From assembly GCA_976226885.1 (NCBI GenBank), contig OZ320316.1:60512001-60576000 (forward strand): a DNA stretch of 64,000 nucleotides. The letters run 5' to 3'. The first letter of the stretch is position 1. Each line of letters begins with the position of its first letter. Below, piece by piece: positions 8,061 through 52,771 of the stretch. Source of the DNA: Iphione sp. A-MEVVRFRX5 (taxonomy: Eukaryota). Below the pieces are notes generated by a model. It was not told the origin of the DNA. It was given only the letters and a program-made list of their open reading frames with translations, and did not search any database. Made by a program: the position numbers and the translations under genes.

Positions 8061-8336
8061 AGATCACGACCAGACAGATTTACTGTAGTCCCAACCCAGA
8101 GTGGTCCACAACTCGTAAAAAGGCCGTGGGTGTATAGGATTCTATCCCCTATGCACAAAAAGATCCCAGAAACCTATTCGAAATAAGAGTAGGGGGCAAC
8201 CCCGGGTATTCTGGTCTCTCAATTCTCAACAATAGATGGTAGTATGCTACCCCAGGAGGATATGGAAGAGCTCTGTCATGTGATGGAGAATATCTAGTTC
8301 CTGGTTAAAGATACAATGAAATGAAATGAAATGAAA
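8061..8336 (+). mobile_element. 5'-truncated copy of tRNA-derived SINE (Nin-like core, (ATGAA)n tail)
   Basis: Body nearly identical to reverse complement of copies at 15080-15430 and 43683-44030; ends in ATGAA repeats; tRNA head missing. Confidence 0.85.
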
Positions 8337-11300
8337 GTCCAACACTAAACCCACCGAGCTATCTTGATTTATTATCATGATAAAAAAATTCGTATTTTCA
8401 TGGTCCAATGGAATTAAACTATAATGTTTGAGTAATATTACTTACCAAGCCATACAAAATTCCAAAAATGCTTCATTCTAACGGTGCCTGAATATTATGA
8501 TTTAACATTTATAGAACATTTGTAAAGCAAACCATGGTGCCTGATGTTCAAATTTATGATCTAATATTTATACAACATTGTCTTTTCATGTTTTTTTAAA
8601 ACCTAGCCAAAACTTCAACACTGATGAGTGGCATGGACTGTATTACAATCTGATTAAATTGAAAAAATTAACATTTGATTCCACATGCTCACGGAGCCCA
8701 GGGCTAAGGTCATGTTTCCATAAACATGCTATATGGGTATTTGGCCTATCATAACTATTAACTAGAATATTTTCATGAATGTGTTGCATGCTCAAACACT
8801 TTTGGTGGATGTATTTTTGATGTCCAAAACATGCAATACCATAAATTACATGTATTGTGCAATATACTCTTATAAGAAATAGATTAGGGCATGGAAGTGA
8901 GGCTTAAGATCAGGTACATCTATACAATTGCTAAATTTTCATATTAATTGCGTAAAAATGACAAAGATTACACAAATATGGGTCAATTTCATAAAAAAGG
9001 GAAATTTGCACATATATATGGCGAAATTTCAAGTAATCTGCACAAAAATGCCAAAATTTACACACTTTGCAAATTACAGACAGGTAGGGTCTTATAATCA
9101 TAAACCTGAGTCTTAGAGACATGCGGGGACTTGCATGCACATATTATGTAAATACTCCATCTAAAAGGGTCTGGAAAAGGCTCATAGTCCCCACATGCTC
9201 TCTGCATTCACGCACCAAAATTGCATTAATGGAAACATGGTCTGTAATGCTTAGACAAGTAGCAAATTGTAAAGTCTTCTTTTTATATCGAAAAGTTCAG
9301 AGCACATTTAGTTAATTTAAATATAACAAGATAAATACATAATCCCTTAAGCCCATATGACCTAATATCCTAAGGGTATGCCATTTGCAGCTACTGTGTG
9401 GCCTGAAGAAGTCAATTCATAAAATAAACGGATAGTTCAAAAGCAGGCTATTTCGATTTAGGGAAGATAGGGTGTCTTTTGTATGTCGTTTCCACGAAAA
9501 TAAAATTAAAGCTTAAACTACAATCACACATGATACAATGGTTAATGCTGTTTGTTTTGTCTCATAGAGATTTGGGGTCTTAACCCTCAAGTCCAGCCTA
9601 CAATGCTGTTTTTTCTAGGACTGGTATTTTGTACACACATGCATCTATGGGTGACACGTCTCTCAAGTATCATTCCGTACGCATGGGACTGAGCTAATTG
9701 TGTCCTGCTGGGTAAGAAAGATTTACTTCCTGGAATAATGAATTTCGTGGGTTGGGAGTTCGTGAATATTTGAACAACGGAGTGGACAAGAGTCATACAC
9801 ATGCCATTCCACTGAATGGGATACATCACATCTCTATGCAAAGACTCAGACAGGCAGGGCATAGCTGTTGCACTAGACTGTGCGTTTTCATGTTGATAAT
9901 AGTTTCTGTGACGATATTGTCACGAAAAATGGAAGCTCTTTTTCATGAAAAGGAGGTTTGGGTCAATTGCTTCCAAAAATATTGTTCCATAGTTTTAAAT
10001 CTCAGTATAGATAATTAGTGCAGCCTATACAGGAAGTGTTTGCCAAATTACTGCGAATTAGCTTCATGAATGCATGCAGGAGGGGACAGGAACACAAAAA
10101 ACACATTTTTATTGCAGTTCCTAAAACAATAAATCACATTTACGTCAGACATTGCAGAAAATACTCTTAGAAACAGTGTGCTTCAAGTCTTCCATGTATA
10201 TTTTAAGGAACATTGAAAGAAAAGTACATAATTTTTCACACCAGAGCAACATACCACATCTCTCCTTTACTGATCGTGTTAGTCACTAAAAAGAAAAGAA
10301 ATGTAACATACTATACAAACAGCTGTACATACAGTCTTCCTATGTAGGCTATCCACGCATATAAGAGATCTTTCCGTAAAACCGCCTCTGCGAGGCGACA
10401 GACAGGATGAATAAAATGGTTCCGTCTTACCAGCTTAATTTAGTGTGACTATCTTTCTCGTAATCAGCAGAAAGCATCACATTGAGCAGGTGGAGGACTT
10501 GGTGCTCCACAGGACTCTCTCTGCTGTGCACTGTTTGATGATACTGGGCTTGCTAGCCTCATGAGACCTCACCACAGCGAGGGTTGGACGCTCCGTGAGA
10601 GCCAAGATCGAACGCCCTAGAAGTAGGAGCTTTGCACACAGCATGCGATACAGGGCACTGCGAAACTCGAGCAGCCTACCTGTAGAAAAGAACAGCATGG
10701 AAAGACCAAATTTGAAGCGTTGGATTTGAACTGCCGCCACACGCCCACCAGCTCTGCAGATGACGTAGCAAAGCCATACAAGGACTCTGGTAGCAACACC
10801 TATGATCCAAGACCGCCGGACCAGTGTCTCACCTATGCATGCTGTAGTCACATGGGAAAGCGGCACGAACAGGCAAGCCAGGTCTGTGATCAGAGGAAAG
10901 AGAGTAACTCACAGACGAATTCAATTATTCCTCTATATCCCCATACTGTATTGCACCCCCATACCCCTTACCATACCACCCTACATACCCCTAATAAAAT
11001 TCCCTCCTGTCCAAGTCCCCACACCACTACTGTGTCCTGGGGCCATTTCCCGTTCCACTCAAGGGACTAGGCTCTTCCCCCCACAGGGTCCACCACCCTC
11101 CCAACACTTCTAATCAGTAGCACTCTTATAATGGCGAGCAGTTGTTATATGGTATTAGACCAGCCAATCAAATCTCAGCAGTCATTTTGTGAGTGTGCAC
11201 CCAGTGCACTCTTCACAATAGCTAACATTAAACCACCCCTGCGTCCTCTCTCTCTATGTTCCTATCATCTCCCCGAGTCCATTATATCCAGTAATCATCT

Positions 11301-14400: not shown

Positions 14401-15079
14401 ATGGGGGTTTACTTAAAATATTTTGACGTGATTCATGGAAACTAAAACTTTAATCTTTTATCGCACTTTTCCTAACAAATATTTTACGCGCAATATGAGA
14501 ATATCTATGTGATGGAAACAATCAGATGTGCTATTTGCTTGTTTTTTGTGTCATCATTTAAAAGCTTATTCTTTCTTAAAATTATTCTCCCAAGTCAAAT
14601 CAGTCAATTCTTGATAGTAACACAGGTTCTTCTATCCATGAAACCCATATCAAAGTATTGCTTTTAACTCCTGTATGTAAGTACGAATATAGTTTATTTT
14701 GAATTCTATTAATGACAGTACTCTTAAAGCACGGCTGCCCTTTAGCATAAAGGATCTATTGTTATCTTGTGAATACCATCGTGCAGTTCTCCACAGAATT
14801 TCGCAATAACATACATACAGTGGAATGTCCCCTTGTGGACATGCCTGCAATATGGATGCATCCCAATAGCGGGTGACTGAGCTTAGAACGGTTCGTATTC
14901 CATAGTTAACCAAAATAACAAGTGGTCTCTAATCAGCAATTTTCGTGCAATGTCCCCCTGCGGACACAGTGTGGTCAAATATCACACTTCTGTTACTGCT
15001 CAATGGGGTTAAAGAGAGGGAATTCACTTTATTAATCGAGGTGTCAATGTACATTTGGCTGAAAAATCGCAAAACTTTT

Positions 15080-15430
15080 TTCATTTCATTTCATTGTATC
15101 TTTTACCAGGGACTATATATTCACCTATCATATGACAGGGTTCTTCCATATCCTCTTTGTGTAGCATACTACCATGTATTATTGAAAATTGAGAGACCAG
15201 AATACCCGGGGTTGTCCCTTAGTCTTATTTCAAAAAGCTTTCTGGGATTTTTGTTTACATAGGGGACAGAATCCTATACACCCGCAGCTTTTTTTACAAG
15301 TTGTGGACCACTCTGGATTGGAACTACAGTAAATCTGTCTGTTCTTGATCAAGAGTCCCAGGTCCAGAATTGAACCTGTGACCTCTCAGTCAGTGGACCA
15401 GTGCTCTACCACTGAGCTAACACCCCACCC
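15080..15430 (-). mobile_element. Full-length tRNA-derived SINE with Nin-like central domain
   Basis: Head with A-box TAGCTCAGTGG and B-box-like GGTTCAATTCT, a body shared with the other copies, (ATGAA)n tail; core of the family (GCACAAAAAGATCCCAG...TTCGAAATAAGAGTAGGGGGCAACCCCGGGTATTCTGG in the 8061 copy) resembles the Nin/MESC SINE domain from memory. Confidence 0.85.
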
Positions 15431-15994
15431 AATGTAACTTATGCAAATTTGCCCCCCCCCCCTCAAAAAAAAACCAAGTGAAATTCATGCAAATTTGTCC
15501 GAAGAAATGGCAGAATACTGTGCAACTCACGTGAATTCAGCAAAAATGGGAAATTCAAGTGAATTCAGCCAAAAGACAGCAAAACTCACCGTTTTTATTA
15601 TACATATGGTCTTAAGTAGCCACATATCTTTTACAATGGTTGTATATTTGTAAATGCCGGTGTGGGAGATGGCTTTTTGATTCAGTACCAGAACTCGGCC
15701 AACTGATGCTTCTGTTGGCACAAAAAACTTATATAGCTGTACTGAGTTACCCCCTAACGTATATAAGTATGCACTATCCAGTGCGGAACCTATCACACAG
15801 GCAACATCATATAGCTTGTGGCAGTAATAGGGAGTCTATTTCTTTCTCCTCATGAATCATTTCTGGATGATTTTCATTATACATATGGAATTTAGTAGAC
15901 ACCCATCTTATACAATGGTTGTAAATTTACATGACAATCATTTCAGGCAGTCGCCGACTGGGCTGCTTCTCTAAGTAGAGAAGCCGCCTTCTAA

Positions 15995-23117: not shown

Positions 23118-23595
23118 CCAGGAGGAGTATTCGAGAGTGGTCGAGGGCATCAACGGCGACTTCTTTGATGGTCTCTCACCCTGGAGGAGTATCCCGGGAG
23201 TGGTCGAGGGCATCAACGGCGACCTCTCTGAAGTTCCTCACACCTTGGAGGGGTTGACCGGCAGTGGTCGAGGGCGTCAACGGCGACCTCTCTGAAGTTC
23301 CTCGCACCTTGGAGGGGTTGGCCGGCAGTGGTCGGGGGCATCAACGGCGACCTCTCTGAAGTTCCTCACACCTTGGAGGGGTTGGCCGGCAGTGGTCGAG
23401 GGCGTCAATGGCAACTTCTTTGATGGTCTCTCATCCTGGAGGAGTATCCCGGAAGTGGTCGAGGGCGTCAACAGCAAAGTCTCTGAAGTTCCTCGCACCT
23501 TGGAGGGGTTGGCCGGCAGTGGTCGAGGGTGTGAACGGCGACGTCTCTGAAGTTCCTCACACCATGGAGGGGTTGGCCGGCAGTGGTCGAGGGCG
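23118..23595. repeat. 63/64-bp tandem array (~7.5 units, two subtypes) in the Tigger 5' subterminal region
   Basis: GACCTCTCTGAAG recurs at 23221, 23285, 23349 (64-bp period); variant units begin GACTTCTTTGATGG (23158, ~23413). Confidence 0.9.
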
Positions 23596-23702
23596 GTCCC
23601 CTCCCTCTATCATACATAAGGAGGTCCAGACAGCACCAGAAATCACTCTTCTCCTGGATTCCCGTGAAGACACACCTCCAGACCACTCCAGACCACTCCA
23701 AG

Positions 23703-25238
23703 ATGCCCAGAAACGAACTGTCCCTTGGTGACAAGGTGAAGCTCCTCAAGGTCTCCACTGGAAGAAGCCAGAGGAGCCTTGCTGAAGAGTTCAAGATAGG
23801 GAAGACCCAAGTCCAATGCATCCTCAAGAGAAAGAGGGAAATCATGGAGCAGTATGAGAAATCACCAGACCCCTCAGTCAAGAGGCACCGCTACTCCACT
23901 GACCTCTCTGACCTGGATGAAGCCTGCTACAAGTGGTTCTGCAGGATGAGGTCACTGAACACCCCCATCTCAGGGCCTGCCATCCAGAAGAAGGTCCTGA
24001 CCCTGAGCAAGGAACTCAACCTGCCAGACTTCAAGGCCTCAGTGGGGTGGCTGCAACGCTTCAAGATCAGGCACTCCATTGGGGCCTTGAAGGTGTGTGG
24101 GGAGAGTGGTGGTGTTTCTGAGGTGGCAGTGGAGGATTGGCTCCAGCAACTCCCTGAGAAGCTCAGGGGATATGCCCCCAGGGACATCTACAATATGGAT
24201 GAGACCGGGCTCTTCCATAGGATAATGCCAGACAAGACCCTTGCCCAGAAAGGATCATCAGCCAGTGGATTCAAGAAATCCAAAGAAAGGATCACTCTCT
24301 CTCTGTGTTGCAACATGGAGGGAGAGTTTGAAAAGACCCTGGTGATAGGGAAGGCCCAGAAGCCCCGGTGCTCCAGATATGTGGACATGTCTGCACTCCC
24401 TGTCACTTGGAAGGCAAACTCCAGGGCCTGGATGACATCCTACATATTCCAGGAGTGGGTGCACAAATTCAACCAGAAGATGAAAAGGCAAGGGAGAAAG
24501 GTTCTCCTCCTCCTGGACAATGCCCCCTCACATCCACATGATATGAGGCTCAGCAATGTGGAGATGGTGTTCCTCCCTCCACATGCTACCTCAAAGCTCC
24601 AGCCACTGGATCAGGGCATCATCCAGAACCTGAAATCACACTACAAGAGCAAGCTCCTCAGTTACTTCATCCAGAAGGCTGACTCCACTGAGGGGCCCAT
24701 AGACCTTCAGTCCCTGATGAAGTCTGTGGATCTTCACCGGGTGGTCTACTGGGTGAGGGACTCACTCCAGCAGGTGAAACCAGACACAGTCAGGAAATGC
24801 TTCCTCAAAGCTGGAGTGAAGATTCCTGATGAGCCCAGTCCAGTGGAGGAGGAGGAGGAGGAGGAGGAAGAAGATGAAGAAGCAGAGTTGGTGAGGAAAG
24901 CACAGAGAGTCCTCCCTGTGGTAGATCCATGCCTACCAGATGATTACTGTGGCATGGATGCAGGTCTCCCAGCCCACAATCAGGATGTGGACTCAGACCT
25001 GCTGCCAAAGAAGGATCATGAGGAAGAGGAAGAAGAAGAAGAAGAAGACACATCACCACCTCCAATCACCCATGCAAAGGCCATGGACATGATGGAGCAG
25101 CTGAGACATCATTTTCTCCATCATGGTGCCAACACCCTCCTGGAGGCCCTATTGACCACCATGAACTCTTTTGACAAGCATGTACAACAATCCAGGAAGA
25201 AACAAAGCACTATTGACTCTTTTTTTAAACCACAGTGA
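23703..25238 (+). CDS. pogo/Tigger transposase (511 aa; HTH/CENP-B-like N-terminus, DD30D catalytic domain)
   Basis: MPRNELSLGDKVKLL...(HTH), 'WFCRMRSLNTPISGPAIQKK...FKASVGWLQRFKIRH' (CENP-B-type HTH), catalytic NMDETGL / LLDNAPSH / QPLDQGII with 30 residues between the last two Asp, C-terminal PIP-box-like QSTIDSFF. Confidence 0.95.
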   Translation: MPRNELSLGDKVKLLKVSTGRSQRSLAEEFKIGKTQVQCILKRKREIMEQYEKSPDPSVKRHRYSTDLSDLDEACYKWFCRMRSLNTPISGPAIQKKVLTLSKELNLPDFKASVGWLQRFKIRHSIGALKVCGESGGVSEVAVEDWLQQLPEKLRGYAPRDIYNMDETGLFHRIMPDKTLAQKGSSASGFKKSKERITLSLCCNMEGEFEKTLVIGKAQKPRCSRYVDMSALPVTWKANSRAWMTSYIFQEWVHKFNQKMKRQGRKVLLLLDNAPSHPHDMRLSNVEMVFLPPHATSKLQPLDQGIIQNLKSHYKSKLLSYFIQKADSTEGPIDLQSLMKSVDLHRVVYWVRDSLQQVKPDTVRKCFLKAGVKIPDEPSPVEEEEEEEEEDEEAELVRKAQRVLPVVDPCLPDDYCGMDAGLPAHNQDVDSDLLPKKDHEEEEEEEEEDTSPPPITHAKAMDMMEQLRHHFLHHGANTLLEALLTTMNSFDKHVQQSRKKQSTIDSFFKPQ

Positions 25239-25763: not shown

Positions 25764-25926
25764 GTAAGTTTACAGAAATCATACATGCACGTGTGTTACA
25801 TCACGGAGCAGGGGGAGACAGGCTTTTAAAGGGCATTGCCCGTGTGTGGGGGCGATGGTGGTGATTTGCTGGTCCCGCGGTCTGCAACCAGAACCCAAGA
25901 AGCAAATCATCTGAGATCATACATAT

Positions 25927-26353
25927 TATAGTTTCTACTTGGGTTCAATAAAGAACTGACAACTCTGAGTCCTGATTCAAAACTGTCTTTATTCAGGTTC
26001 CCTCTCATATTTATATCTTTTCTCCAATCAAGGCACTAGCCAATCATCTGTCAGTATCAGAGTAAGAGAATACATTGTTACCTTCTTTAACAGTCCTTTC
26101 AACTAACCTACCAATCAGGAGAGGGCAAAGTATCACTTTTGGGCTGTGGGACCACAGCCGAGTGCTGCCGATCCAATCACAAGAGAGCTTTGAGACTCCA
26201 GGGTAGTTTGTTTTAAATCCAGGGGTGGCTGTGGTACCACAGTGACCCTTAGTGCATGTGCACCGAGTCCAGTACTCCTGCACTTACAGGGCGTGCGCCC
26301 GTACCTCCACCTGTGGCACCACAGCTCGAGGCCGGCTCCTGCATACCACTACA
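25927..26353 (-). repeat. 3' LTR (427 bp)
   Basis: Matches 35863-36338 except ~6 transitions and a 49-bp deletion; one terminus mutated (TA instead of TG on the + strand); three CTGTGGnnCCACAG palindromes, CCAAT boxes, minus-strand TATAAA and AATAAA. Confidence 0.97.
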
Positions 26354-26366
26354 CTCTCCCCTCTTT
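26354..26366 (-). promoter_or_regulatory. Polypurine tract (PPT)
   Basis: Minus strand AAAGAGGGGAGAG immediately 5' of the TGTAG start of the 3' LTR. Confidence 0.9.
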
Positions 26367-26603
26367 AAATTACACCCACCTCTGAGAGATGGGGCGAAGT
26401 ATTACACCCTAGAAGATCAATCTAGGAACAGCAATTCTAACTCAATCTCCCGACACTATAGCCACTAGGTAGCTTCCTTAATTTTAGCACCAATGAAATT
26501 TCTCTCGCCGTCACTACTTAACACCTGCTAAAGTTTTACAATGCGTCTAATCCCAAAAGTATCTGAGTGTCCCTGAGCATGCAGTCTTATAAGCCTGAAA
26601 TAC

Positions 26604-26785
26604 GGCTTACGGCCGTGGTAGTTCAGTAACACAGTCATATCAAATGAACTAAGGCTTACGGCCGTGATAGTTCAGTGCAACAGTCATATCAGATGTGGAG
26701 GTATGTAGTCCTCTGAATGTGAAGTAAGGCTTACGGCTGTGGCAGTTCAGTAAAACAGTCATATCAAGTATGGGGGCTTAAGGCC
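26604..26785. repeat. Three and a half spaced copies of a 39-nt unit in the Gypsy 3' untranslated region
   Basis: GGCTTACGGC(C/T)GTG(G/A)(T/C)AGTTCAGT...ACAGTCATATCA at 26604, 26653, 26728; partial at 26775. Confidence 0.85.
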
Positions 26786-27053
26786 GCAAAAGTCCAACCA
26801 ACCAATCACATAAAAACACTATCATACTTTGAATTCAACAACGGAGAAGCCCGTGTTGGGCGAAACTTGACCTCTACGTAAACTCTGAATCTGGCCTCAC
26901 TCTCTTGGAGGAAAGTTTGATCACCGGGATGATATCAGTCTCACGTGGAGTTTGAGGCCCGAGCAACGACACCAACTCAACAAAAAAAACATTCTTTACC
27001 CGCTCGGGCCCCTACTCACCACCCTGTGGAGGTCGGCTGTTCTACTCCTCCGT

Positions 27054-28502
27054 TCACATCACGTCAGTGTTGGTGCGACGCTGCTGAGAGGGGCGGGCCT
27101 CCAGGAGGTCCCACACAGTGGGGTCCTCCGCTCGTTGTTGGACCCGTGCCGCCTGTGCCTCCCGCTCCCAGGTGTCGAAGGCCTCGCGCCTCGAGGCCGC
27201 CGTCGCCGCGTAGGCCGGATGCGGGTCTTCGAGGAGGTTGGTCGCTGCTTCGATCGATCGGTTGTGCCAGCGGGTGACACGTTCGCAGTCGCCCCACTCG
27301 AGCCGGTCAGGGATCCGCATCCCTTCCAGCGCGAGGACCGACCGCCTGACCAGGGGGTCGATGAGGTGTTGCGGCGATGCCTCTGACTCCGCCAGGGCCA
27401 GAACCCACGCCAAGGAGGAACTGGCGATGAAGCGCGAGGTTGGGCTCATCTCCATCCAGCGGGGAGGGGGCCATTCCAGCCGCAGGGGAAGGCGTACCAT
27501 AGTGGGAACCATGACGGCTCGCCGTACCGCCGGGTAGGGTGGCACTCGGCCGTCCAGAATCTCCCGGACTAGACGGGACAGTGGGCCGAGCATGGGCGTG
27601 GTGAGTTCCCGTTCTGCCAGTCGTTGAAGGTGTCCTGGCGGGAGGGCTGCCTCCCGGGGCCGATCGCTTGATGGACCTCGAGAGGGTCCAGAGGCCTCCC
27701 AAGCCGTCAGGGTGTCGAGGAGGGCGGCCAGACTCCAGTCAGGGGTCAGGAGGGATGGCCCCCCCCTCGCAGTAGACTGGCGACTGACGTGGGCGTCCCT
27801 GGAGTGGTGCTGCTGCTTCATCGTCCACCGCTGCCGGCTCTGGTTGACCTCCCCGGGCCTCCGGTGACGGGGGATACACCCCGGCCCCACGCATAGGGCA
27901 CTTGTGGTGCATCCCGGAGATACCCCCGCCCAGCAGGAGCTGGAGGCATGGGCGGAGTGCGGTCGCTCCCTACGCTGCCCTCCCCAGAGTCGGAGGGGGA
28001 AGCGGGACGTCCAACGGCGGCAGCGGCCGGTGAGGTGCGCCAGCGGGCTCGGCCAGAAGCATGGGACGGCTGGGACTCCGGCGGGGGTGTGGACTCCATT
28101 GCCGATGAAGAAGATGGTCCGAGAGGCCCGGGTGGAGGCCTGGTTGCCGGTGTCCGAGGTGCACCGTGCCCAGGCAGGAGAGAAGACGGTTGCCGCCCCC
28201 AGACGACGCGCCGCTCGGGGAGGCTCGGCCGAGGCTCCAGGATCTCGTCTACTTCCGCCGGACCCATGAAGGCGCCGAGAGTGGCGGGTGCCCGGCTCGC
28301 CTAGGACGCTGCGACAGAAGAGGCAGTCCATCTGTCGGTGTCGACGGCCCCCATGCTGCTCCTTCTGATGACACTCCAAGGACTCCCCCGCCCAATACAC
28401 CCGGTGGGGTGTGCAGAGCTCACACCAAGCTGTACCAGGGGGCAGGGGTTCTCCCTCCTCCACCTGGGGTGCCGGGGGACGTGCCACTTTCTGCCGGGGC
28501 AT
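27054..28502 (-). CDS. Gypsy accessory ORF: two atypical C2H2 zinc fingers, Pro/Ser-rich linker, helical C-terminal domain (probably frameshifted in this copy)
   Basis: ATG at 28502 right after a pyrimidine tract + CAG acceptor; CELC-x14-H-x4-H and CLFC-x10-H-x4-H; alternative frame 28267-27818 looks like the true linker; C-terminal 'LEWPPPRWMEMSPTSRFIASSSLAWVLALAE...' block; no signal peptide or TM. Confidence 0.65.
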   Translation of the reverse strand: MPRQKVARPPAPQVEEGEPLPPGTAWCELCTPHRVYWAGESLECHQKEQHGGRRHRQMDCLFCRSVLGEPGTRHSRRLHGSGGSRRDPGASAEPPRAARRLGAATVFSPAWARCTSDTGNQASTRASRTIFFIGNGVHTPAGVPAVPCFWPSPLAHLTGRCRRWTSRFPLRLWGGQRRERPHSAHASSSCWAGVSPGCTTSALCVGPGCIPRHRRPGEVNQSRQRWTMKQQHHSRDAHVSRQSTARGGPSLLTPDWSLAALLDTLTAWEASGPSRGPSSDRPREAALPPGHLQRLAERELTTPMLGPLSRLVREILDGRVPPYPAVRRAVMVPTMVRLPLRLEWPPPRWMEMSPTSRFIASSSLAWVLALAESEASPQHLIDPLVRRSVLALEGMRIPDRLEWGDCERVTRWHNRSIEAATNLLEDPHPAYAATAASRREAFDTWEREAQAARVQQRAEDPTVWDLLEARPSQQRRTNTDVM

Positions 28503-29039
28503 GCTGCTTGCCACAGAGAAAGACGGCCAGCCAGGGTGGTTGTGGAACCACAGGCTTGTTGACAGTACAGGTTAGGTCAAGACGTGGGGCCACAGACTAC
28601 AACACACAGAGATGAACAGTCAGCGGCAGACAATCACTGTGGTACCACGGACAACAAGCTGACTGCACTTGGGGTGGTCACTCAGCCGCCCTTACCTGTC
28701 GTCGGAGATGGAGGTGCGAGGTGCGGCGAGGCCACAGCGCGGTGATGGCGACTGCCGCTCCTCGCCCAGTCACCCGATCCTTCTGCAGCGTCTGCCGGAA
28801 ACCGTGGTCTGTGGTTCCACGCTCACGATCAGCTTCCTGCTTCTCAACGCCCCGTCGGATGTGTCCACGCATAAAGACTTATTTTTGGCACTGTCCCCCG
28901 GCGTCCCCGCTGTTCTTCTCAGCCTCTTCTCTCCCTCACGTGGCCAGCTGTGGTGCCATGGGCCGCCATTGATCACGTCTCGCGAGATCACGGGTTCTCT
29001 CGCGCCCCGTGAGATCCCGCATCTCGCGTCCGTATCTCA

Positions 29040-29445
29040 TCTGTGGGCCCACAGCGAAACTGCTTACTCTACGACTGCTGAAGATTCATTCTTTTTGTAC
29101 TATAGGGGACTGGTAGGGATAGGACAAAAACTGTGCTACACCACTCTATTTCCCTTCCTTCGGCTGTGGCACCACAGGCACTTTCGCTGCGTTCTCCCTC
29201 TAGAGGGCGACACCTCCTCCCCGCCTGTGGTTCCACAGCCCATTCACCTGATACGTTGTATCGGCTATTTCCCCTGATTCCACCAATCACTCGTTACGTT
29301 GGATTTCTGTGGCACCACAGTACGAGTGGTTACCCTCCCAGCCAATCGCTCGAAAGCCAATGATATCTGTGGCACCACATACATGATCTTCGCTGCCCGC
29401 CGTAGCCAATCATCTTGGCCCACTGCGCCCCCCCCAATATAAATG
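29040..29445. promoter_or_regulatory. Putative bidirectional internal promoter of the Gypsy accessory region
   Basis: CTGTGGnnCCACA(G/T) palindromes at 29041, 29164, 29225, 29307, 29367; CCAAT at 29283, 29342, 29357, 29406, 29434; TATAAA at 29438-29443; flanked by divergently oriented spliced ORFs. Confidence 0.6.
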
Positions 29446-29677
29446 AGATGGGCTACGGCCAGCCTGCTTCATCTGGACTCTTGCTGCACCCCACCAGGCT
29501 TCTCTATCCTTCCAGCTACCCCTTCCAGCTACCCCAGCTCAGGTACCCGTCTTATGTAGGAATGGCAACTGTTTAACATCTTTGAACTAGCTGAACCAGA
29601 GACAAATCATAGTTTTTTTTTTGTTTTGTTTTGTTTTTTTTTAACGGTTTTCTCCCTTTTTCAGCCTAAACCCAGCC

Positions 29678-30547
29678 ATGACCAATCAAGGGACCGCGTT
29701 TGGGCACCTTCCTGCTGCGGTTCTTCGGCCTTATCGCCTGTGAGTGTTTGGATAACTCTTCCTCTACTTCCACTCGTTCTAAGTGTTATCCAACATCGCC
29801 CCTTCCTGAAGTTTAGTGTCAGCCAGATCCATCTTCATTTTTCCTGCCTATTTTCTCTTCCATAGGCTCCGCTATCGACCCACCCTGCCCGGGTCAACCC
29901 CCTCCGGCGTGAACATTCACACAGAAGGGCCGGTGGTACGAGTTTTCGGCACCCATGAGATCATAGATGCCCCCTTCATCTTGCCTGTTCCGGGCCGTCT
30001 GATCTTCCTTGGGCCGCTTCACGTGATTGACCTGGTGGTACGCCCTGTCGCCCCTCCTGGCTCGGCGCGACCCCCGCCAACGATGCCCGCCCCATCAGAC
30101 TGGGCCGCTTGCTACACCACCCCGTTGCTTCCACCGGCCTCTCCCTCCTCCAGTGCTTCCGGGTATGGCACCGACAGCCCTTCATCCCTTACCAGCAGTC
30201 GTCTGGACCCCTGGGGGTCCCACCAGGACCTTTCCGCGATGGGCGCCTCACCACCCCCGGCAGACGGATCGGGTCGCTCCTCTCCAAGCCCACGGCCGTC
30301 ACCCACCCCGTCGGGAGAAGACTCTGTACCGCCTCCGTCTCCGGCCGTCACGAGGTCAGAATGCACTACCCCCGAGACAGGCGATGACATCTCCTGCAGC
30401 TCCTCACACCTGGGGACTTCCCCTCCGGGAGGCCATGTGCCCTTCGCGGCGATTTCGACTCCCGCCCTGGCAGCCTGGTATCGTCAGTTTCGTTGGGGCG
30501 ACGCTCCCTTCTGCCCTATCCTGGTATCTTCCTCCGATGAGGAATAG
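29678..30547 (+). CDS. Antisense spliced accessory gene of the Gypsy element (CDS join 29678-29739, 29866-30547; ~247 aa, Pro/Ser-rich)
   Basis: Non-coding exon 1 ~29470-29542 (CAG|GTAC); acceptor TTTTCTCCCTTTTTCAG|29665; gccATGa at 29678; donor CT|GTGAGT 29739; acceptor TTTTCTCTTCCATAG|29866 in matching phase 2; stop 30547; AATAAA 30614-30619. Confidence 0.75.
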
Positions 30548-30613
30548 GACCTTAATCAGTAACTACACTCCCCATGCTAAGTACTCTGTAGCTGCGTGGC
30601 TGACATACCTTGA

Positions 30614-30619
30614 AATAAA
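30614..30619 (+). terminator. Polyadenylation signal of the antisense accessory gene
   Basis: AATAAA ~67 nt after the TAG at 30547. Confidence 0.6.
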
Positions 30620-31024
30620 TTTCAACTAACTAATTTGTCCCCCGTGTTCGTTCTATGTTCTGTTCGCTCTCAGACTTAATTATAAACACCCTTCCCGTCG
30701 TCCCGCCGCAGCGACCAGAGGACATAACCCGACCAGGTTCTAATTCCTTCGCCCTGGTCCGAGTTGGCTCCACCCCTGACAGTGTGCCGGCTTGCCCAGA
30801 GGACAAAGCCTGGCCAGACCTCCGTCTCCTTCTGGCCCAGGCCGGCTCCACTGTCAGTCCCACCTCCGTGGTCTGTCGACCTCTCAGCTACCACCAGCCT
30901 ACACTGCAAGCGGCCGTAGTGCTGCCCTCCCTAACGGGAGCTTCCTTCGCACACTATGGTTCGCCCTCCGACAACATCTCCGGAGCTGCCTAGGTCCCCC
31001 CCCGGAGGACGTGCCCCCACTCCT

Positions 31025-31355
31025 CCCCCTAGAGCTTTTGGGTACCGCACCCGGGGATGTCCAGCCTCCCCCTCTGGAACTTTCGGGTCCCGCACCCGAG
31101 GATGTCCAGCCTCCCCCCCTGGAGCTTTTGGGTCCCACACCCGAGGATGTCCAGCCTCCTCCCTCTGGAGCTTTTGGGTCCCACACCCGAGGATGTCCAG
31201 CCTCCCCCCTCTGGAGCTTTTGGGTCCCACACCCGAGGATGTCCAGCCTCCCCCTCTGGAGCTTTTGGGTCCCGCACCCGAGGATGTCCAGCCTCCCCCT
31301 CTGGAGCTATTGGGTCCCGCACCCGGGGATGTCCAGCCTCCCCTCCCTGGAGCTC
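31025..31355. repeat. ~45-bp minisatellite (~7 copies) in the tail of pol
   Basis: GGAGCTTTTGGGTCCC(A/G)CACCCGAGGATGTCCAGCCTCCCC units; give 15-aa repeats in several frames. Confidence 0.95.
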
Positions 31356-31365
31356 TCTGCTCTCC

Positions 31366-34300
31366 CTAGTCCGACCTCCACTGGAAGATTTTTATCCTTT
31401 TGTTACGAGCTCCCTTCCTTATTCGCGCGCCGCCGCCATGACTTGATCCAACGAGGTATCTACCCTCGATACAGTCGTAGGCGATTCCGATGCACCACCT
31501 TGGGGCGAGCCGGGCTGCCCGTTGGACCACCAATCGCTCTGGGTCCAGTACCTTAGTAACGAGCCATGGACCCGTCCAGGGCAAGTATACTTTAGGGCTC
31601 TTCCCTCTGGGTGGTTGAGCTTCGTGTAACCACGCCACGTTCCCTTCCTGTAGGGGTTCCCCTTTTGCCCGGCGATCGTATCCTCTAGCCTGCATCCGTG
31701 CAGCCTTTAACAAGTGTTCCCGGACCGTCTGGTAAGCCCTCTTCAGCTGACGTTGAAGGCGCTGCACCCACTCTGGCATAGTCACCTGTTCCTTCCCCTC
31801 CCACTCACTAAGAGGGAGGCCATCCATCGCATGCGCTGGCAGGACCACCTCCCGACCGAACATCAGGAAGTTGGGTGTGAAGCCAGTACTGGCTTGGGGG
31901 GAAGCTCGGTAGGCCATCATAAGCAGTGGGAGTGCTTCATCCCAGTCGTCGCCGGTATCGTAGCAGTGGGCTTTAATCATTTTCCCTAGCGTGCGGAAGC
32001 TCCTTTCGATAAATCCATCCCCCTGGGGGTGTCTAGGGGTCGTCTTGGTTCGCTGGATTTGCAGGAACTCACACAGAGCAGAAACAACTTCACTGCAGAA
32101 GTTGGTTCCTCTGTCGCTGTGGAGCTCCATGAAACATCCATAACGAGAGACCACCTCCTCCACTAGTACTTGTGCTATCCGGGTTGCCTTCTGATCAGGC
32201 AGTGGGAAGGCCTCTAGCCATTTAGTAAAGTGGTCCCCCACCATTAAGATATAACAATTGCCCCGCTTGGTATGGGGGAACGGACCGGCCACGTCCATGG
32301 ACCATCTCTCCATTGGCTCCCCGGACATATAAGTGCGCAGCGCCGTCTGTGGACGGAAGGGATTTACTGTGAGGAGAGCACAGTGACATTTCGCACAGAA
32401 GGTTTGTATAACTTGTTGCATCCCAGGCCAGTAATACGCCAAGGACACCAGGAAAGTGGTGCGGTCTACCCCTAAGTGGCTACCCATTCGGCCTTGGTGG
32501 ATTTCCTCGATAGCCTTGACTCGTCGCTGTGCAGGGAGTACCAGCTGCAGGCGGGTTCTTGGGGCTTCGAGCTCATGCCACTGCCGGTATAGCAGCCCCT
32601 CTTGTACCACCAAACGGTCCCACTGCTGCCATAGTTTCTTGGCCGCCCTCGACAAGGGGGAAATATCCTCCCACTCTGGCCTACCAGATGTATCCTCCTT
32701 CAGCATCAGGATAGGTCCAATATCTGGGTCGTCCAGCTGCGCACCCCGAAGGGCCCGATCTGTCGCCCCCTGAGTGCGGCCTCGGGTGACGACTCGTACC
32801 TCCACCCCATGCTCCTGCTTACACTGTTTACAAGGCATTCGGGATAGAGCATCTGCGTTACCGTGCAGGCGCCCTGGTGGGTGCTGAAGGTGGAGGTGAT
32901 ATTGACCGATTCTCTCCAGCCATCGAGCTAACTGCCCCTCAGGGTCCCGGATACGGCTCAACCAGCTAACCGCCCCATTGTCCGTCTGCACCGTGATCTC
33001 CTGCCCGTATATAAAAAAATGAAAATGTTTCAAAGCAGCTACCACCACCAGCAACTCCCTCCGCATCACACAATACCTCCGTTCCGGTGGCGTGAGACTG
33101 CGGCTAAAGTACGCGAGGACTACTTCCTGGCCTTCCTGCTCTTGGGAAAGCACAGCTCCTAGCCCCACATTGCTGGCATCTGTGTCCAAATAAAAACGTC
33201 CCTTAGGCATCGGGTAGCCCAGCACGGGGCTGGCCTGTAATGCCCGTTTCAGAGATTCGAAGGCCTCCTCTTCTTCGGGGCCCCAATAAAACCGGGTCCG
33301 GGGGCTAGTCAGCCGGTGTAGGGGTGCTGCTAGATCGGCGAAATGAGCCACCAGACGGCGGTAGTAGGAGCAAAGTCCGAGAAAGGCTCTTACGTTGGTA
33401 GTGGAGGTCAGCCTTGGCCATTCCTGGATACACTGCACCTTCCCGGGATCCGCTGAAATTCCCCGATAGGACACCCGATGCCCCAGGAAAGGAACCTCCT
33501 CAAGGAACAAACGGCATTTAGCCGGTTTCAATTTTAAGCCAGCAGCCTCAATTCGAGAGAGCACCTGATCCAACCGGGCTAGCGTCTCCCCAAAATCCCG
33601 CCCAAATACCAATACGTCGTCCAGATAGACTAGGCATTGCTCCCAGGTCAGTCCCCTGAGCACCGTGTCCATTAAACACTCAAACGTAGCAGGAGCGTTG
33701 ACCAACCCAAACGGCATCACTGTAAACTCATACAACCCAGAGGATGTGGTGAAGGCCGTCTTTTCCTGGTCCCGCGGATCCATCTTAACCTGCCAATAGC
33801 CCGATGCTAAGTCTAGCGAACAAAAGTACCGAGCTCCCGCCAGTGCGCTTAACGAATCATCCACTCGGGGTAGGGGATACGCGTCAACCTTCGTCTGTTG
33901 GTTTAGTCTCCGGTAATCGACACAGAAACGAGTAGTTCCATCCTTTTTGCGTACCATGACTACGGGACTTGCCCAGGGGCTCTGGCTCACGACAATGACC
34001 CCGGCCTCTGCCATTTCCCTTACTAGTTGCTGCTCTTCCTGTCTTCTTGACAGGGGCAGGCGCCGAGGTTGCTGTTTAATGGGACCTGATTCCCCCATGC
34101 AAATACGATGTTGCACCACGTCCGTACAACCCAAGTCACCTTTGTGTTGTGCAAAGGCCCCCCTGTGCCGTTCTAGCACCACCCGCAGCTCTCCTTGTTC
34201 CCCTTCAGTGAGATGAACTGTCTTAGTGGCCATCAACTCATCTATCAAGGTCCCTGTCCCCACCTTTGTGGTAGCCACTTTCAGGGGGTGGTTCTGGAGG

Positions 34301-34986
34301 CAGTCAGTAACCTCCTCCCTCTGCGCTGGCGAGCCAAGGGCCAGAGACGTCCCCTGTTGGATCAACAGTTCCCTCTCCCCAGTGTTCCACACGGGCAGCA
34401 CCTGGCTTACAACGCAACGCACTCCTACCACCCCTTGTAATAACTGATCCTCCTCTAAGCCCTCTACCAAGAATGGACCCTCTCCACTGGGAGACACTGG
34501 GATCCCCACCCCTTCCCCAGGGGGAACCGTAATATCGGAGGCTGCCCTCAGTACCTTAACCCCCCTGGTCTGTTCCTTCCCCCTAGGGGTCCCTCCAAAC
34601 AAAACCTCACCCTGTGCCAAGTCAATGACAATGCCATGCTGGGTCAAGAAATCTGCCCCCAATATCCCATCCCCTTCTATCTCTGCTAACAGGAAGTGGT
34701 GTTTGAATTCCTTTCCAGCAATCCCTACCTGCACCTCCTCTCTCCCTACCGTTGGCAGGATATGGCCCCCTACCCCCATAACCTTTACAGCAGCCCTCTT
34801 AACAACTGGGCCAGGGACCACACAGGGATTCATAATGGAAACTTCAGCACCCGTATCAATAAGCAGTAGGAGTGTCTTCTCACCACAGCTTACCTTGAGA
34901 TGTGGTCCCTGGCCGTATTCCATTATCACCTCCCGGTGGACAAATGCAGTCGGTGTCCCCTGGCCTACTGAGCCGACTGCTGTGTG
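31366..34986 (-). CDS. pol: Gypsy pol polyprotein (protease, RT, RNase H, integrase); C-terminus disrupted
   Basis: LIDTGAEVS (AP), YLDD (RT), DASNVGLGAVL...NADALSR (RH), H-H-C-C region, MDVAGPF / LHSDRGTNF / GFIERSFRTL (IN DDE), WTGPW (GPY/F). A 1-nt shift near 31520 restores 'RPKVVHRNRLRLYRG', followed by an in-frame TAG at 31460-31462. Frame is -1 to gag. Confidence 0.95.
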   Translation of the reverse strand, partial: HTAVGSVGQGTPTAFVHREVIMEYGQGPHLKVSCGEKTLLLLIDTGAEVSIMNPCVVPGPVVKRAAVKVMGVGGHILPTVGREEVQVGIAGKEFKHHFLLAEIEGDGILGADFLTQHGIVIDLAQGEVLFGGTPRGKEQTRGVKVLRAASDITVPPGEGVGIPVSPSGEGPFLVEGLEEDQLLQGVVGVRCVVSQVLPVWNTGERELLIQQGTSLALGSPAQREEVTDCLQNHPLKVATTKVGTGTLIDELMATKTVHLTEGEQGELRVVLERHRGAFAQHKGDLGCTDVVQHRICMGESGPIKQQPRRLPLSRRQEEQQLVREMAEAGVIVVSQSPWASPVVMVRKKDGTTRFCVDYRRLNQQTKVDAYPLPRVDDSLSALAGARYFCSLDLASGYWQVKMDPRDQEKTAFTTSSGLYEFTVMPFGLVNAPATFECLMDTVLRGLTWEQCLVYLDDVLVFGRDFGETLARLDQVLSRIEAAGLKLKPAKCRLFLEEVPFLGHRVSYRGISADPGKVQCIQEWPRLTSTTNVRAFLGLCSYYRRLVAHFADLAAPLHRLTSPRTRFYWGPEEEEAFESLKRALQASPVLGYPMPKGRFYLDTDASNVGLGAVLSQEQEGQEVVLAYFSRSLTPPERRYCVMRRELLVVVAALKHFHFFIYGQEITVQTDNGAVSWLSRIRDPEGQLARWLERIGQYHLHLQHPPGRLHGNADALSRMPCKQCKQEHGVEVRVVTRGRTQGATDRALRGAQLDDPDIGPILMLKEDTSGRPEWEDISPLSRAAKKLWQQWDRLVVQEGLLYRQWHELEAPRTRLQLVLPAQRRVKAIEEIHQGRMGSHLGVDRTTFLVSLAYYWPGMQQVIQTFCAKCHCALLTVNPFRPQTALRTYMSGEPMERWSMDVAGPFPHTKRGNCYILMVGDHFTKWLEAFPLPDQKATRIAQVLVEEVVSRYGCFMELHSDRGTNFCSEVVSALCEFLQIQRTKTTPRHPQGDGFIERSFRTLGKMIKAHCYDTGDDWDEALPLLMMAYRASPQASTGFTPNFLMFGREVVLPAHAMDGLPLSEWEGKEQVTMPEWVQRLQRQLKRAYQTVREHLLKAARMQARGYDRRAKGEPLQEGNVAWLHEAQPPRGKSPKVYLPWTGPWLVTKVLDPERLVVQRAARLAPRWCIGIAYDCIEGRYLVGSSHGGGARIRKGARNKRIKIFQWRSD

Positions 34987-34992
34987 TTTTCC
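34946..34992 (-). promoter_or_regulatory. Putative -1 programmed ribosomal frameshift signal (gag-pol)
   Basis: G GAA AAC in gag frame (34992-34986), 5-nt spacer, then perfect 8-bp stem GCAGTCGG/CCGACTGC; pol frame is open from just upstream of this site and is -1 to gag. Confidence 0.7.
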
Positions 34993-35831
34993 GACGGTTT
35001 AGGCCCTGCAGTGTTCGATGCTTGCTGTGGGGCTTTCGGGCAATCTCTCTTCCAGTGACCCGGTTGCTTGCAGATGAAACACAAATTGTCCCTGGGCCGT
35101 GACCTCTGAGGTCGCATTTCCTCCCGTAGTTTGGCAAACTCCTGCATTAGGACTTCCACCATGTCCTTGGGTGCTGGGCTGTTAGCATCCTTGTTGCCAC
35201 TTGCTTGTATGGCGTTCACCCTCCTAGCCGGGAACCGTTCTTTGATCTCCACTACCTGTAGTGCAGCCTCCATGGTCTTGCATTGTTCTTCTAGACATTT
35301 CAAATGCAGGTCATCAGGGAGCGCCCGTTGAAAGGCCGACACTGCCGCTAACTCTCGCGTCTCCGCACTCACATCGGGGTACGCGGTGCGTACAAGTCGT
35401 CGGACTTTATCAGCAAACCCCTTGGCATCCTCCCCTTTCTGTCTGCGGATCGTGGACAGGCCTTGCATAGCCGTCACTGGATTACGTCGACGTCCAAACC
35501 GCTTTTCCAAGGCGGCTACCCTGGGCTCAAAGTCAGCCTTGTCCTCCGACGGAAGGTCTCCAAAGTACATTCGGGCGGTGCCAGTCAACGACAGAGCCAG
35601 TGCTGAAGCTCTTGTGTTCAGACTCCACTTGCATGCATCTGCCCATTCGACAAACTGGACAATCCAACTGTCCCAGTCGACTACGTTGCCATCGAATCGT
35701 TCAGGTTTCATGGCATTGGTGCGCAGTGGCTCCTCTGGGGCTAGCACGTAAGGCTCAGCTTCTTCTTCATCGTCCGCATCCGGTACGCGTAGCTGTACCT
35801 CGTCGTCAACTGCCACAAACTTGGTAGCCAT
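34965..35831 (-). CDS. gag: Gypsy gag (288 aa) with CCHC zinc knuckle
   Basis: 'KPERFDG...WDSWIVQFVEWADACKW...LALSLTGTA' capsid-like region and CFICKQPGHWKRDC knuckle; ATG 13 nt after PBS. Confidence 0.95.
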   Translation of the reverse strand: MATKFVAVDDEVQLRVPDADDEEEAEPYVLAPEEPLRTNAMKPERFDGNVVDWDSWIVQFVEWADACKWSLNTRASALALSLTGTARMYFGDLPSEDKADFEPRVAALEKRFGRRRNPVTAMQGLSTIRRQKGEDAKGFADKVRRLVRTAYPDVSAETRELAAVSAFQRALPDDLHLKCLEEQCKTMEAALQVVEIKERFPARRVNAIQASGNKDANSPAPKDMVEVLMQEFAKLREEMRPQRSRPRDNLCFICKQPGHWKRDCPKAPQQASNTAGPKPSENTQQSAQ

Positions 35832-35843
35832 GATGTACAGTGG

Positions 35844-35861
35844 ATCCCACTTCTGACACCA
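35844..35861 (-). promoter_or_regulatory. Primer binding site, tRNA-Leu type
   Basis: Minus strand TGGTGTCAGAAGTGGGAT 1 nt from the 5' LTR end; this PBS sequence is the common tRNA-Leu-complementary type. Confidence 0.9.
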
Positions 35862-35862
35862 A

Positions 35863-36338
35863 TGTAGTTTCTACTTGGGTTCAATAAAGAACTGACAACT
35901 CTGAGTCCTGATTCAAAACTGTCTTTATTCAGGTTCCCTCTCATATTTATATCTTTTCTCCAATCAAGGCACTAGCCAATCATCTGTCAGTATCAGAGTA
36001 AGAGAATACATTGTTACCTTCTTTAACAGTCCTTTCAACTAACCTACCAATCAGGAGAGGGCAAAGTATCACTTTTGGGCTGTGGGACCACAGCCAAGTG
36101 CTGCCGATCCAATCACAAGAGAGCTTTGAGACTCCAGGGTAGTTTGTTTTAAATCCAGGGGTGGCTGTGGTACCACAGCGACCCTTAGTGCATGTGTACC
36201 GAGTCCAGTACTCCTGCACTTACTTCGTATAGCCAGTGCACCCCGACTGTGGCACCACACACTTCTGCGCACAGGGCGTGTGCCTGTACCTCCACCTGTG
36301 GCACCACAGCTCGAGGCCGGCTCCTGCATACCACTACA
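35863..36338 (-). repeat. 5' LTR (476 bp)
   Basis: TG...CA ends; four CTGTGGnnCCACA palindromes; minus-strand TATAAA 35946-35951 and AATAAA 35924-35929. Confidence 0.97.
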
Positions 36339-37374
36339 ATATATACGTGCATATATGTCAGAAAAACACGACAATTGAATGGGGGGAAAAGACACACCTT
36401 TAATACAGAGTAACAAGTAAAATAAACATAAAAACAAGGTAAAAATTTCAATGTGGAGTGTCGTTATAGAAGAACTACCATGGAGACGTATACACAGTTG
36501 CTTGAAGACAACAATACAACCGTTTTGCGACATATATATATAATATCTTATATCGATATATATATATATACGTAAGCCTATGAACCTCACGAGGTGGGGG
36601 GCAGGCCTGGGAGCATTGATCATGAGCCTGTATAGTGATGCATTCCAGTAAAATTTGGAAAACAATTACATACATGTAGGCTATGCTGTACGGGGGCTGT
36701 ATTTCACTATAGGCCCAATAGGTACATCTGTCCAAAATGCAGGCAAAAGGAGGAAACGGTAGTGTTTCCGCATGTCCATTGACGGATTCTGGTAAGAGAC
36801 TGCTAACAAACCAAAAATACTGGTATGTGGACATCGTCTCTGATTCACACAAAAAAACGGGCCCGGCACTATTTGAATGGTTGTTGGGGGTGGGGTGGAA
36901 CTCTTTTTTGTTTCAAACAGAAATCCTGATTAATTATATTATTTTTTATTATTGTAATCCCTTCCAGACCGACTGTGTGCCACTTTTTCAGATCAGTCTA
37001 TGGGCGGTCTGGAAGAAGTTAAAGGTATCTCTTGCGATAAATCATCCACGAGTTCTGTTTTTACTATTATTTGTGATAATTTGTAAAATAAAATGATAAT
37101 AAAGCATAAAAGCCAACCAGTCATTACAAGATGCAGCTACCTTGTATCTCGGTTGAAGTCAACCTTTCGGGGGGGGGAGGAGTTGGTTCGGCAGAACATC
37201 CCTAGTTACGGGAATACGGACAAACATGTATGTGCTCCTGTAAACAGAAATCTGGGACTATAAAAACAGCGGCTCCCTATGTATTTGAAAAATGTGTCTT
37301 TACATATATGATGTAAATAGGATGTTTTTTTGTTCCAATTCATGGCCGTCTTTCTTTTCGACTGACCCATGAAG

Positions 37375-43520: not shown

Positions 43521-43682
43521 GTAAGTCATTCAGGTTTATAGTACATCTAGGCCCTATATGCATACATGCATACACTACATTATATGTAAATGGAAGTTTT
43601 ATTCCTTATGATGTGCCAAAAGGATACATTGAGTCAAATCCTTAGATTTGGACACCAGGAAGCAGGTTGTGTTGTCATTTTA

Positions 43683-44030
43683 TTTCATTTCATTTCATTG
43701 TATCTTTTACCAGGAATATATTCACCTATCATATGATAGGGATCTTCCATATCCTCCTGGGGTAGCATACTACCATCTATTATTGAGAATTGAGAGACCA
43801 GAATACCCGGGGTTGCCCCCTACTCTTATTTCGAATAGGTTTCTGGGGTCTTTTTGTGCATAGGGGATAGAATCCTATACACCCACGGCCTTTTTATGAG
43901 TTGTGGACCACTCTGGGTTGGGGCTACATTAAATTTGTCTGGTCGTAATCAAGAGTCCCAGGCCTGGAATTGAACCTGCGACCTCTCAGTCAGTGGACCA
44001 GTGCTCTACCACTGAGCTAACTCCCCACCC
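43683..44030 (-). mobile_element. Full-length tRNA-derived SINE (same family as 15080-15430)
   Basis: A-box TAGCTCAGTGG, B-box GGTTCAATTCC, shared body, (ATGAA)n tail. Confidence 0.88.
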
Positions 44031-44254
44031 CTTGTCTTGTTATAAAGGTGGCATATACTTCTTATATGTACACAATATGTTTAGTGCATGGCAGCCATCT
44101 TTAATTCTGTTTGTCCTCATTTCAGTGTGTCATATATCACATACAGCAACTCGGTGCTAAGTTCTTAAGTTGTGCCACCTCCTCTTCATGGTTGAGTGGT
44201 CCCTGATAGTCATAGGTAAGGTGGGTTAAGTGATAGACAACAAGTAACACCCAC

Positions 44255-44610
44255 TTCTACAGAGGGTTATAAGTGACACACAACATGTAACAGACACCTA
44301 TACAGAGGGTTGCATAGAACACACAACATGCAGCAGACACCTCTAACAGAGGGTTACAGGGACACACAACATGCAGCAGACACCTCTAACAGAGGGTTAC
44401 AGGGACACACAACAGGTAACAGATACATCTATAGAGGGTTACAAGGGGTACACAACAGGTAACAGACACCACTACAGAGGGCTACAGTAGGCACCCAACA
44501 GATAACAGACAATCTTAGAGAGAGTTACAGGTGACACATTATAGGTAACAGACAGCTCTACAGAGGGTTACAGGTCACACAAAAGTAATACACACCTGTA
44601 GAACAGATTA
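44255..44610. repeat. ~43-bp minisatellite, ~8 diverged copies
   Basis: ACAGAGGGTTACAGGGACACACAACATGCAGCAGACACCTCTA-like units. Confidence 0.85.
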
Positions 44611-52522: not shown

Positions 52523-52771
52523 TGTTGTTTCCTCTGCGATTTCCGGCCCAACTAAGAACGTCTTGGTGTCCAACTTGTCGACGGGGCCATAGGTCTCACG
52601 GAACTCCACGAAGTCGTCAAACACCTTCGGGTAGAGGGCAGCACTCACGATATCCTGGTCACTGATCTGCACACCGTGTTTCTCCTCCAGGTCCTGACGC
52701 ACCTTCTCGAAGTCAAGGGGCTCCATGGTCTCTCCAGGTCTGCCTTCCACAGTGGGAGCGCCTTTCAAGAT
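52523..52771 (-). CDS. PC: Pyruvate carboxylase exon
   Basis: ILKGAPTVEGRPG...SAALYPKVF...FLVGPEIAEETT; 249 nt, phase 0/0. Confidence 0.96.

Follow-up and report, generated by a model that had tools for sequence, protein, structure and literature searches.

We analysed a 64-kb stretch of DNA (the window) that contains a Ty3/Gypsy LTR retrotransposon on the minus strand. The element has two LTRs, a target duplication, a primer-binding site, a polypurine tract, gag, and a pol with the protease, reverse transcriptase (RT), RNase H and integrase order; no env domain was found in it. The region between pol and the 3' LTR is about 5 kb long, and in it an array of short palindromes fills the gap between two divergent accessory genes.

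25927-36338 (-): Gypsy element, 10.4 kb
25923-25926 and 36339-36342: target duplication, ATAT, 4 bp
35863..36338 (-): 5' LTR, 476 bp, with palindromes, CCAAT, TATA and AATAAA
35960, 35976, 36047 and 36109: the four CCAAT boxes of the 5' LTR
35951-35946: TATA of the 5' LTR
35929-35924: AATAAA of the 5' LTR
35844..35861 (-): primer-binding site
34965..35870 (-): gag ORF (stop to stop), with a CCHC knuckle
31366..34998 (-): pol ORF (protease, RT, RNase H, integrase, in Gypsy order)
29678..30547 (+): accessory gene 2, predicted to be spliced, antisense to gag-pol (ATG 29678, donor 29740, acceptor 29865, stop 30547, AATAAA 30614)
28504..28695 (-): predicted 5'-UTR intron of gene 1 (donor 28695, acceptors 28597 or 28504)
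27054..28502 (-): accessory gene 1, encoding P0001 (482 aa), sense to gag-pol
26354..26366 (-): polypurine tract, adjoining the 3' LTR
25927..26353 (-): 3' LTR, 427 bp

The two LTRs differ by six substitutions and a 49-nt gap, and one terminal base of the 3' LTR is unlike that of the 5' LTR. Four of the six substitutions are CpG-type, and the CpG observed/expected ratio is 0.33 in the LTR versus 0.83 in the internal promoter described below; on these grounds the LTR looks methylated. In the LTR (35924-35951, -) the AATAAA follows the TATA by only about 20 nt, and hence stands upstream of the expected start. This arrangement would imply a very short R and so spare the 5' LTR premature cleavage. 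The primer-binding site is presumably tRNA-Leu-like. The closest relative of pol is the P0003 cluster (777 members), with 63% over RT-RNase H; no relative came up when viral contigs were scanned with pol, and Rfam and tRNA scans gave no match. Immediately behind the pol stop (31020-31354) stand 7.4 copies of a 45-nt unit, like the post-pol arrays of plant Retand. Three 49-nt repeats stand in the 3' UTR before the polypurine tract (26596-26768), one of which contains a single CTGTGG arm.

The flanking DNA is that of a host genome, with introns, a LINE-type RT remnant, CpG depletion and a pyruvate carboxylase exon (52538-52780, -; E=1.5e-20 to the human enzyme); together these features identify the host as an animal. 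An open Tigger/pogo-type transposase ORF (23535-25238, +) lies about 700 bp from the 3' LTR and is preceded by five 64-nt repeats (23136-23594). The window also holds three copies of an interspersed repeat (8062-8345, 15079-15435 and 43669-44035) and a 43-nt minisatellite (44230-44584).

Gene 1 encodes a protein, P0001, with two divergent candidate C2H2 fingers (aa 27-79) and a C-terminal half that is predicted to be helical. The chance of its open frame is 6e-5, and its coding signal is weak in codons 61-300. No homologue of whole P0001 was found by a word-index search, by phmmer over 1.84 billion representatives, or in Pfam/PHROGs. In the Atlas search, aa 15-95 returned unnamed clusters and minor C2H2 leads, and aa 245-482 returned nothing usable. 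A single-sequence structure model of P0001 had a pLDDT of 36.6, too low for use, and a fold search returned nothing at E<=0.001.

Gene 2 has a predicted phase 2 intron that is frame-compatible, with a donor (29740) under the score threshold; the splice scoring of both genes is crude. Its product would be about 247 aa long and Pro/Ser-rich, with a hydrophobic-then-acidic tail. Exon 3 has no homologue in our searches, Pfam/PHROGs included. The tail (30509-30547, +) resembles what we take to be a phospho-SUMO-interacting motif, although a 4-residue regular expression was not matched. A post-pol ORF in a related element (L039, about 9350-9392) ends in much the same way. No long hydrophobic segment was found in either accessory gene, as in non-env genes.

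Palindromes shared by the LTRs and the internal region

The motif CTGTGG-NN-CCACAG has 10 exact matches in the window versus 0.00 expected, and none of 100 shuffles reached 10. With at most two mismatches there are 19 matches versus 3.16 expected. Seventeen of these are the sites given here, all of which lie in noncoding parts of the Gypsy element. An earlier note on this DNA had named the same 17 positions, and a motif search of the window found every one of them to be correct.

28540..29380 (no strand): array of ten dispersed palindromes, 14 bp each, from motif search and shuffles (starts 28540, 28582, 28637, 28809, 28948, 29041, 29164, 29225, 29307 and 29367)
36080..36309: four palindromes in the U3 of the 5' LTR (starts 36080, 36165, 36247 and 36296)
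26144..26324: three palindromes in the U3 of the 3' LTR (starts 26144, 26229 and 26311)

The pattern was picked from the data themselves; in an unbiased search for palindromes of the dispersed, spaced kind it was nevertheless the top match in the element. Four of the ten internal copies are exact, three have one mismatch and three have two. Against 300 local dinucleotide shuffles, the array holds 10 palindromes versus 0.13 expected and the 5' LTR holds 4 versus 0.06. The 3' LTR lacks a 49-nt stretch that contains one site, and so has three sites to the four of the 5' LTR. The motif is missing from gag-pol, as previously noticed, which is unsurprising because only 0.36 copies are expected there from the same shuffles. 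Sites in the array are spaced 42-172 nt apart, with no fixed helical phase.

The palindromes are not copies of one another in any wider sense. We analysed 14 independent sites, the ten internal ones and the four of the 5' LTR, and excluded the three of the 3' LTR as duplicates. Flank identity between copies is 8.9/30, the same as for random pairs (8.9/30). Once the motifs are masked, the sequence shared by the LTR and the internal region is down to a 13-mer CCAAT word and a single weak 15-mer. None of the arrays reported by Tandem Repeats Finder covers a palindrome site. The unrelated flanks indicate that the copies are neither tandem nor LTR-derived duplicates and, with no tandem array over them, that they have been maintained separately.

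The anatomy of the sites is that of a paired half-site. The inner TGG is invariant (28/28 half-sites), and mismatches are confined to the outer three arm positions. The spacer is 2 nt in 13 of the 14 occurrences of TGYGG..CCRCA in the element. It had been described as varying while the arms are kept. Variation there is, extending to GG and TG, but the spacer is not free: half of the 28 half-sites (14) have a T right after TGTGG (p=0.0017), and a T first or an A second is found in 12 of the 14 independent sites (p=0.0007). Of the 28 half-sites, 17 have a G two bases beyond the arm (p=0.0002, without correction for about 24 tests), and from this enriched outer G the full site may be about 18 bp long. 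Neither the array nor the 5' LTR contains a lone CTGTGG, TGTGGT, ACCACA or TGCGGT; lone CCACAG occurs twice in them. The palindromes are free of CpG.

The fixed spacer, the invariant TGG and the absence of lone Runx-type half-sites suggest that the palindrome has been selected as a binding site for a dimeric protein. This agrees with the original proposal that one such site is common to the LTR and an internal promoter; the unrelated flanks and the restriction of mismatches to the outer arm fit it as well. We therefore regard the palindrome, whatever its origin, as very probably a cis-element for a dimeric protein.

The internal array also spans a predicted bidirectional promoter, which was absent from the earlier note. 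Its two halves are of different kinds:

28937..29028 (-): predicted TATA-less, CpG-rich promoter facing gene 1, with a putative start site
28978-28987: TCTCGCGAGA of the (-) promoter, the sole copy in the window
28998 and 29022: TCTCGCG
28962: YY1-like GCCGCCAT
28937: E-box
29283..29444 (+): predicted CCAAT/TATA promoter facing gene 2
29283, 29342, 29357, 29406 and 29434: CCAAT boxes toward gene 2
29438: TATA toward gene 2

TCTCGCG words directed toward the sense gene 1 number four versus 0.10 expected, a count reached in none of 1000 shuffles. At 28966-29035 these words make up a nested inverted repeat, which folds into a long hairpin. For vertebrates, TCTCGCGAGA has been described among the elements of TATA-less CpG-island promoters (PMC10813206), and we assume that it acts likewise in the present host. 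Toward gene 2 there are five CCAAT boxes versus 0.77 expected. Alternation of the palindromes with CCAAT boxes upstream of a TATA had been proposed for both promoters. It holds beside the TATA, but not for the distal sites: the seven internal sites from 28540 to 29164 and the two most distal sites of the 5' LTR have no CCAAT between them and their neighbours. We regard the palindromes as a real, selected cis-regulatory array that links the LTR to a predicted bidirectional internal promoter.

Candidate binding proteins

The binder may be one of the element's own two accessory proteins, with P0001 as the first candidate, a tentative reading that we hold at somewhat below even chances. The array brackets the accessory genes' own promoters, which counts in its favour. 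The TGTGGNNCCACA core was found neither in 53.6 kb of host flank, around the one element copy sampled, nor in 98 related Gypsy loci, only 45 of which have at least 500 bp after pol. Absence from the host is a weak observation because one family copy and 53.6 kb of host DNA were sampled, and the Gypsy relatives compared are distant ones from other hosts, with 29-55% pol identity. Two-finger C2H2 proteins can read CTGTGG, as described for yeast Met31/32 (PMC2926612).

The fingers of P0001 appear, from sequence, real but divergent. All eight zinc ligands align with those of two-finger post-pol proteins of related elements, with an hhalign E=0.0014 and a probability of 17%. Pfam did not recognise the P0001 fingers, while it recognised those of the relatives in three of three cases. 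Finger 1 models as beta-beta-alpha and has Ala/Ser/Cys at what we take to be the usual base-reading positions. Finger 2 did not model as a finger; it is two residues short and has Gly-Pro at the expected helix.

C2H2 post-pol ORFs occur in 9 of the 45 relatives with enough downstream DNA, and no comparable dispersed palindrome array was found in 24 LTR or noncoding regions from 18 relatives. Relatives can therefore have finger genes without arrays, and the finger gene and the palindrome are uncoupled. Both this and the divergence of the fingers speak against self-binding. Motif arrays in LTRs are, moreover, usually host-factor sites, which also counts against an element-encoded binder. Sense-strand C2H2 ORFs just after pol are found in several Gypsy families from different samples (L023, L039, L099-L105, L178 and L180). 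A literature search, which left subscription papers mostly outside its range, returned no report of post-pol C2H2 genes in animal Gypsy elements and, within the same range, none of a shared palindromic operator in such elements.

A host dimeric transcription factor is nearly as plausible, although still below even odds. One possibility is a lineage-specific zinc-finger dimer of BTB or ZAD type that is active in the germline or embryo, and the element would have gathered sites in both promoters for expression in those cells. Such a dimer fits the same geometry, with its fixed spacer and invariant TGG. Both promoters are otherwise made of host words (the enriched CCAAT and TCTCGCG), the element's fingers look ill-suited to base reading, and relatives carry finger genes without palindromes. 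Against it, the host flank has no core site in its 53.6 kb, and our literature search found the motif strings in no relevant paper. We know of no animal factor with a CTGTGG-NN-CCACAG site. Nor is the motif enriched in another animal-like assembly (G004; 32 versus about 26 expected). An apparent excess in that assembly (32 versus 3) was rejected, as the matches are single copies in repeat families and about 26 are expected from dinucleotides. On the sequence evidence the two readings are close, with an element-encoded protein narrowly ahead.

Host Runx/CBF is an improbable binder, whether as one Runt domain on the TGTGGT-bearing side or as two on the full palindrome. The earlier note had read the palindrome as two back-to-back Runx sites. 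The T bias agrees with that reading, in that a T first or an A second in the spacer (12/14 sites) completes TGTGGT where the arm is intact. TGTGG is the Runx1 core, and Runx can dimerise on palindromes (PMC2952845). However, in the dimer palindromes described there the TGYGG cores are 4 bp apart, and a palindrome with cores 3 bp apart bound only one Runx. The Runx1/CBF dimer palindrome of the GM-CSF enhancer (PMC2952845) has inverted TGTGG cores, at that 4-bp distance, whereas the cores here are 2 bp apart. The element contains no four-spaced palindromes and 13 two-spaced ones. Only 2 of the 14 independent sites are TGTGGTACCACA, the preferred TGTGGTY appears in only 4 of 28 half-sites, and the array and 5' LTR lack lone TGTGGT/ACCACA or TGCGGT. 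A Runx monomer, for its part, would not need the second arm.

It is very improbable that the palindromes serve as RNA hairpins or self-pairing signals in genomic RNA, for dimerisation, packaging or strand transfer. As minus-strand RNA the array does fold better than shuffles (z=-2.89, 0/20 shuffles), but any palindrome-rich stretch folds well, and the 3' LTR folds at only z=-1.57. Self-complementary spacers are found in only 3 of 14 sites, the stems have no consistent extension, and wobble-compatible changes favour the plus strand by 5 to 1, while genomic RNA is the minus strand. The sites also match nothing in Rfam and occupy promoter positions. Least credible of all is a neutral relic of tandem amplification or of an internal LTR fragment, with no current function: the element has other tandem arrays and its U3 varies by a 49-nt unit with one site, but no Tandem Repeats Finder array lies over the sites, the flanks are at random identity and LTR homology is gone after masking.

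Similar motifs at other loci were recorded as well. The 5' region of the related element L039 (1-250) has about ten tandem ATCCGCA/AACCGCA words, presumably GCM- or Runx-like. Unrelated phages have TGTGGNNCCACA repeats (L003, 442-520; L005/L009), which in L003 lie inside a probable replication-initiator gene and are iteron-like. Paired-motif scans of viral contigs (18 loci) and of prokaryote genomes (11 loci) yielded tandem or phage repeats; these show no similarity to the element proteins and were rejected. Gypsy elements also turn up on eukaryotic contigs within several prokaryote MAGs (L099-L116; G001, G004), and the megabase contigs of G004 look animal. A literature match for GTGGNNCCAC was also rejected, being a coincidental library oligo in the passage concerned (PMC1488866).

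A proposed circuit and its known counterparts

Beyond a selected palindromic site in promoter positions, we infer the following steps, in which the identity of the binder and the sign of regulation are guesses. The palindrome would act as an operator, bound as double-stranded DNA by a homodimeric protein whose subunits would each read approximately G-n-CTGTGG, with the inner TGG essential; the 2-bp spacer would fix the geometry, with a weak preference for T in it. Ten internal copies and three to four U3 copies would put the LTR and the two-way internal promoter under one switch.

If the binder is the element's own P0001, host housekeeping words (TCTCGCGAGA, the YY1-like word, the E-box and the CpG-rich context) could give basal transcription of gene 1, whose product would dimerise on the CpG-free palindromes. 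Together with host NF-Y/TBP at CCAAT/TATA, this dimer would activate the methylation-prone LTR and the antisense gene 2, and the acidic SIM-like tail of gene 2 may counter silencing. Gene 1 transcription could also receive feedback from the sites that lie downstream of its predicted start (28540-28948). As a whole, it is a speculative and rather unlikely reading that an env-less animal Gypsy element runs its own circuit, in which a basal internal promoter supplies a dimeric accessory protein that acts through a private palindromic operator to turn on a methylated LTR and an antisense anti-silencing gene. Such a circuit would be Tas- or VANC-like and would have evolved independently in invertebrate retrotransposons.

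Complex retroviruses (Tas) and plant DNA transposons (VANC) are established cases of sequence-specific self-activation, and our literature search found no self-encoded, sequence-specific activation described in animal Gypsy elements. The candidate operator here is explicit and high in information, with 14 independent repeats, and there are only two candidate proteins, which makes the question open to direct test. Should a host factor be the binder instead, the motif would remain a dimeric site that has apparently not been described before. Post-pol zinc-finger genes seem to be widespread in invertebrate retrotransposons, and the C2H2 genes that recur after pol in several Gypsy families are an accessory-gene class worth surveying.

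If the element-encoded reading holds, the circuit would resemble those of foamy viruses and VANDAL transposons. Foamy-virus Tas/Bel1 acts on an LTR and an internal promoter upstream of accessory genes (PMC7390438), an arrangement that resembles the predicted promoters here, and in both a basal internal promoter could start an LTR-activating loop. As described there, however, Tas targets in the LTR and internal promoter share little sequence, whereas one palindrome is common to both in this element. The present element is also an env-less Gypsy and not a spumavirus, its internal promoter looks bidirectional, and no Tas homology was found for P0001 or gene 2.

As with VANC of Arabidopsis VANDAL (PMC5735166), a protein of the element would read a short, family-specific motif that is dense in noncoding DNA and absent from coding DNA; here the motif is missing from related families, although these are distant. 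VANDALs, according to the same source, are plant DNA transposons with a non-palindromic motif in the same orientation, spread in tandem. The element here is an animal retrotransposon whose motif is palindromic, with unrelated flanks and no tandem unit. Without env or Tas, and without tandem spread of the motif, it belongs to neither the foamy nor the VANC class.

Two other LTR elements share parts of this organisation. Oikopleura Tor, also an animal LTR element, has an internal promoter behind pol, where it drives env as a third gene according to the account cited (PMC4402516); the present element has two non-env genes of opposite orientation, and a shared operator array in addition. The plant Gypsy elements Retand and Grande (PMC11963269) have a long region from pol to the 3' LTR, an antisense ORF proposed to be regulatory, and tandem arrays beside pol or the LTR, as this element does. 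They are, however, of a plant lineage with a TRP28 domain, and the passages cited describe no operator shared by the LTR and an internal region, the feature that links the LTR of the present element to its predicted bidirectional promoter.
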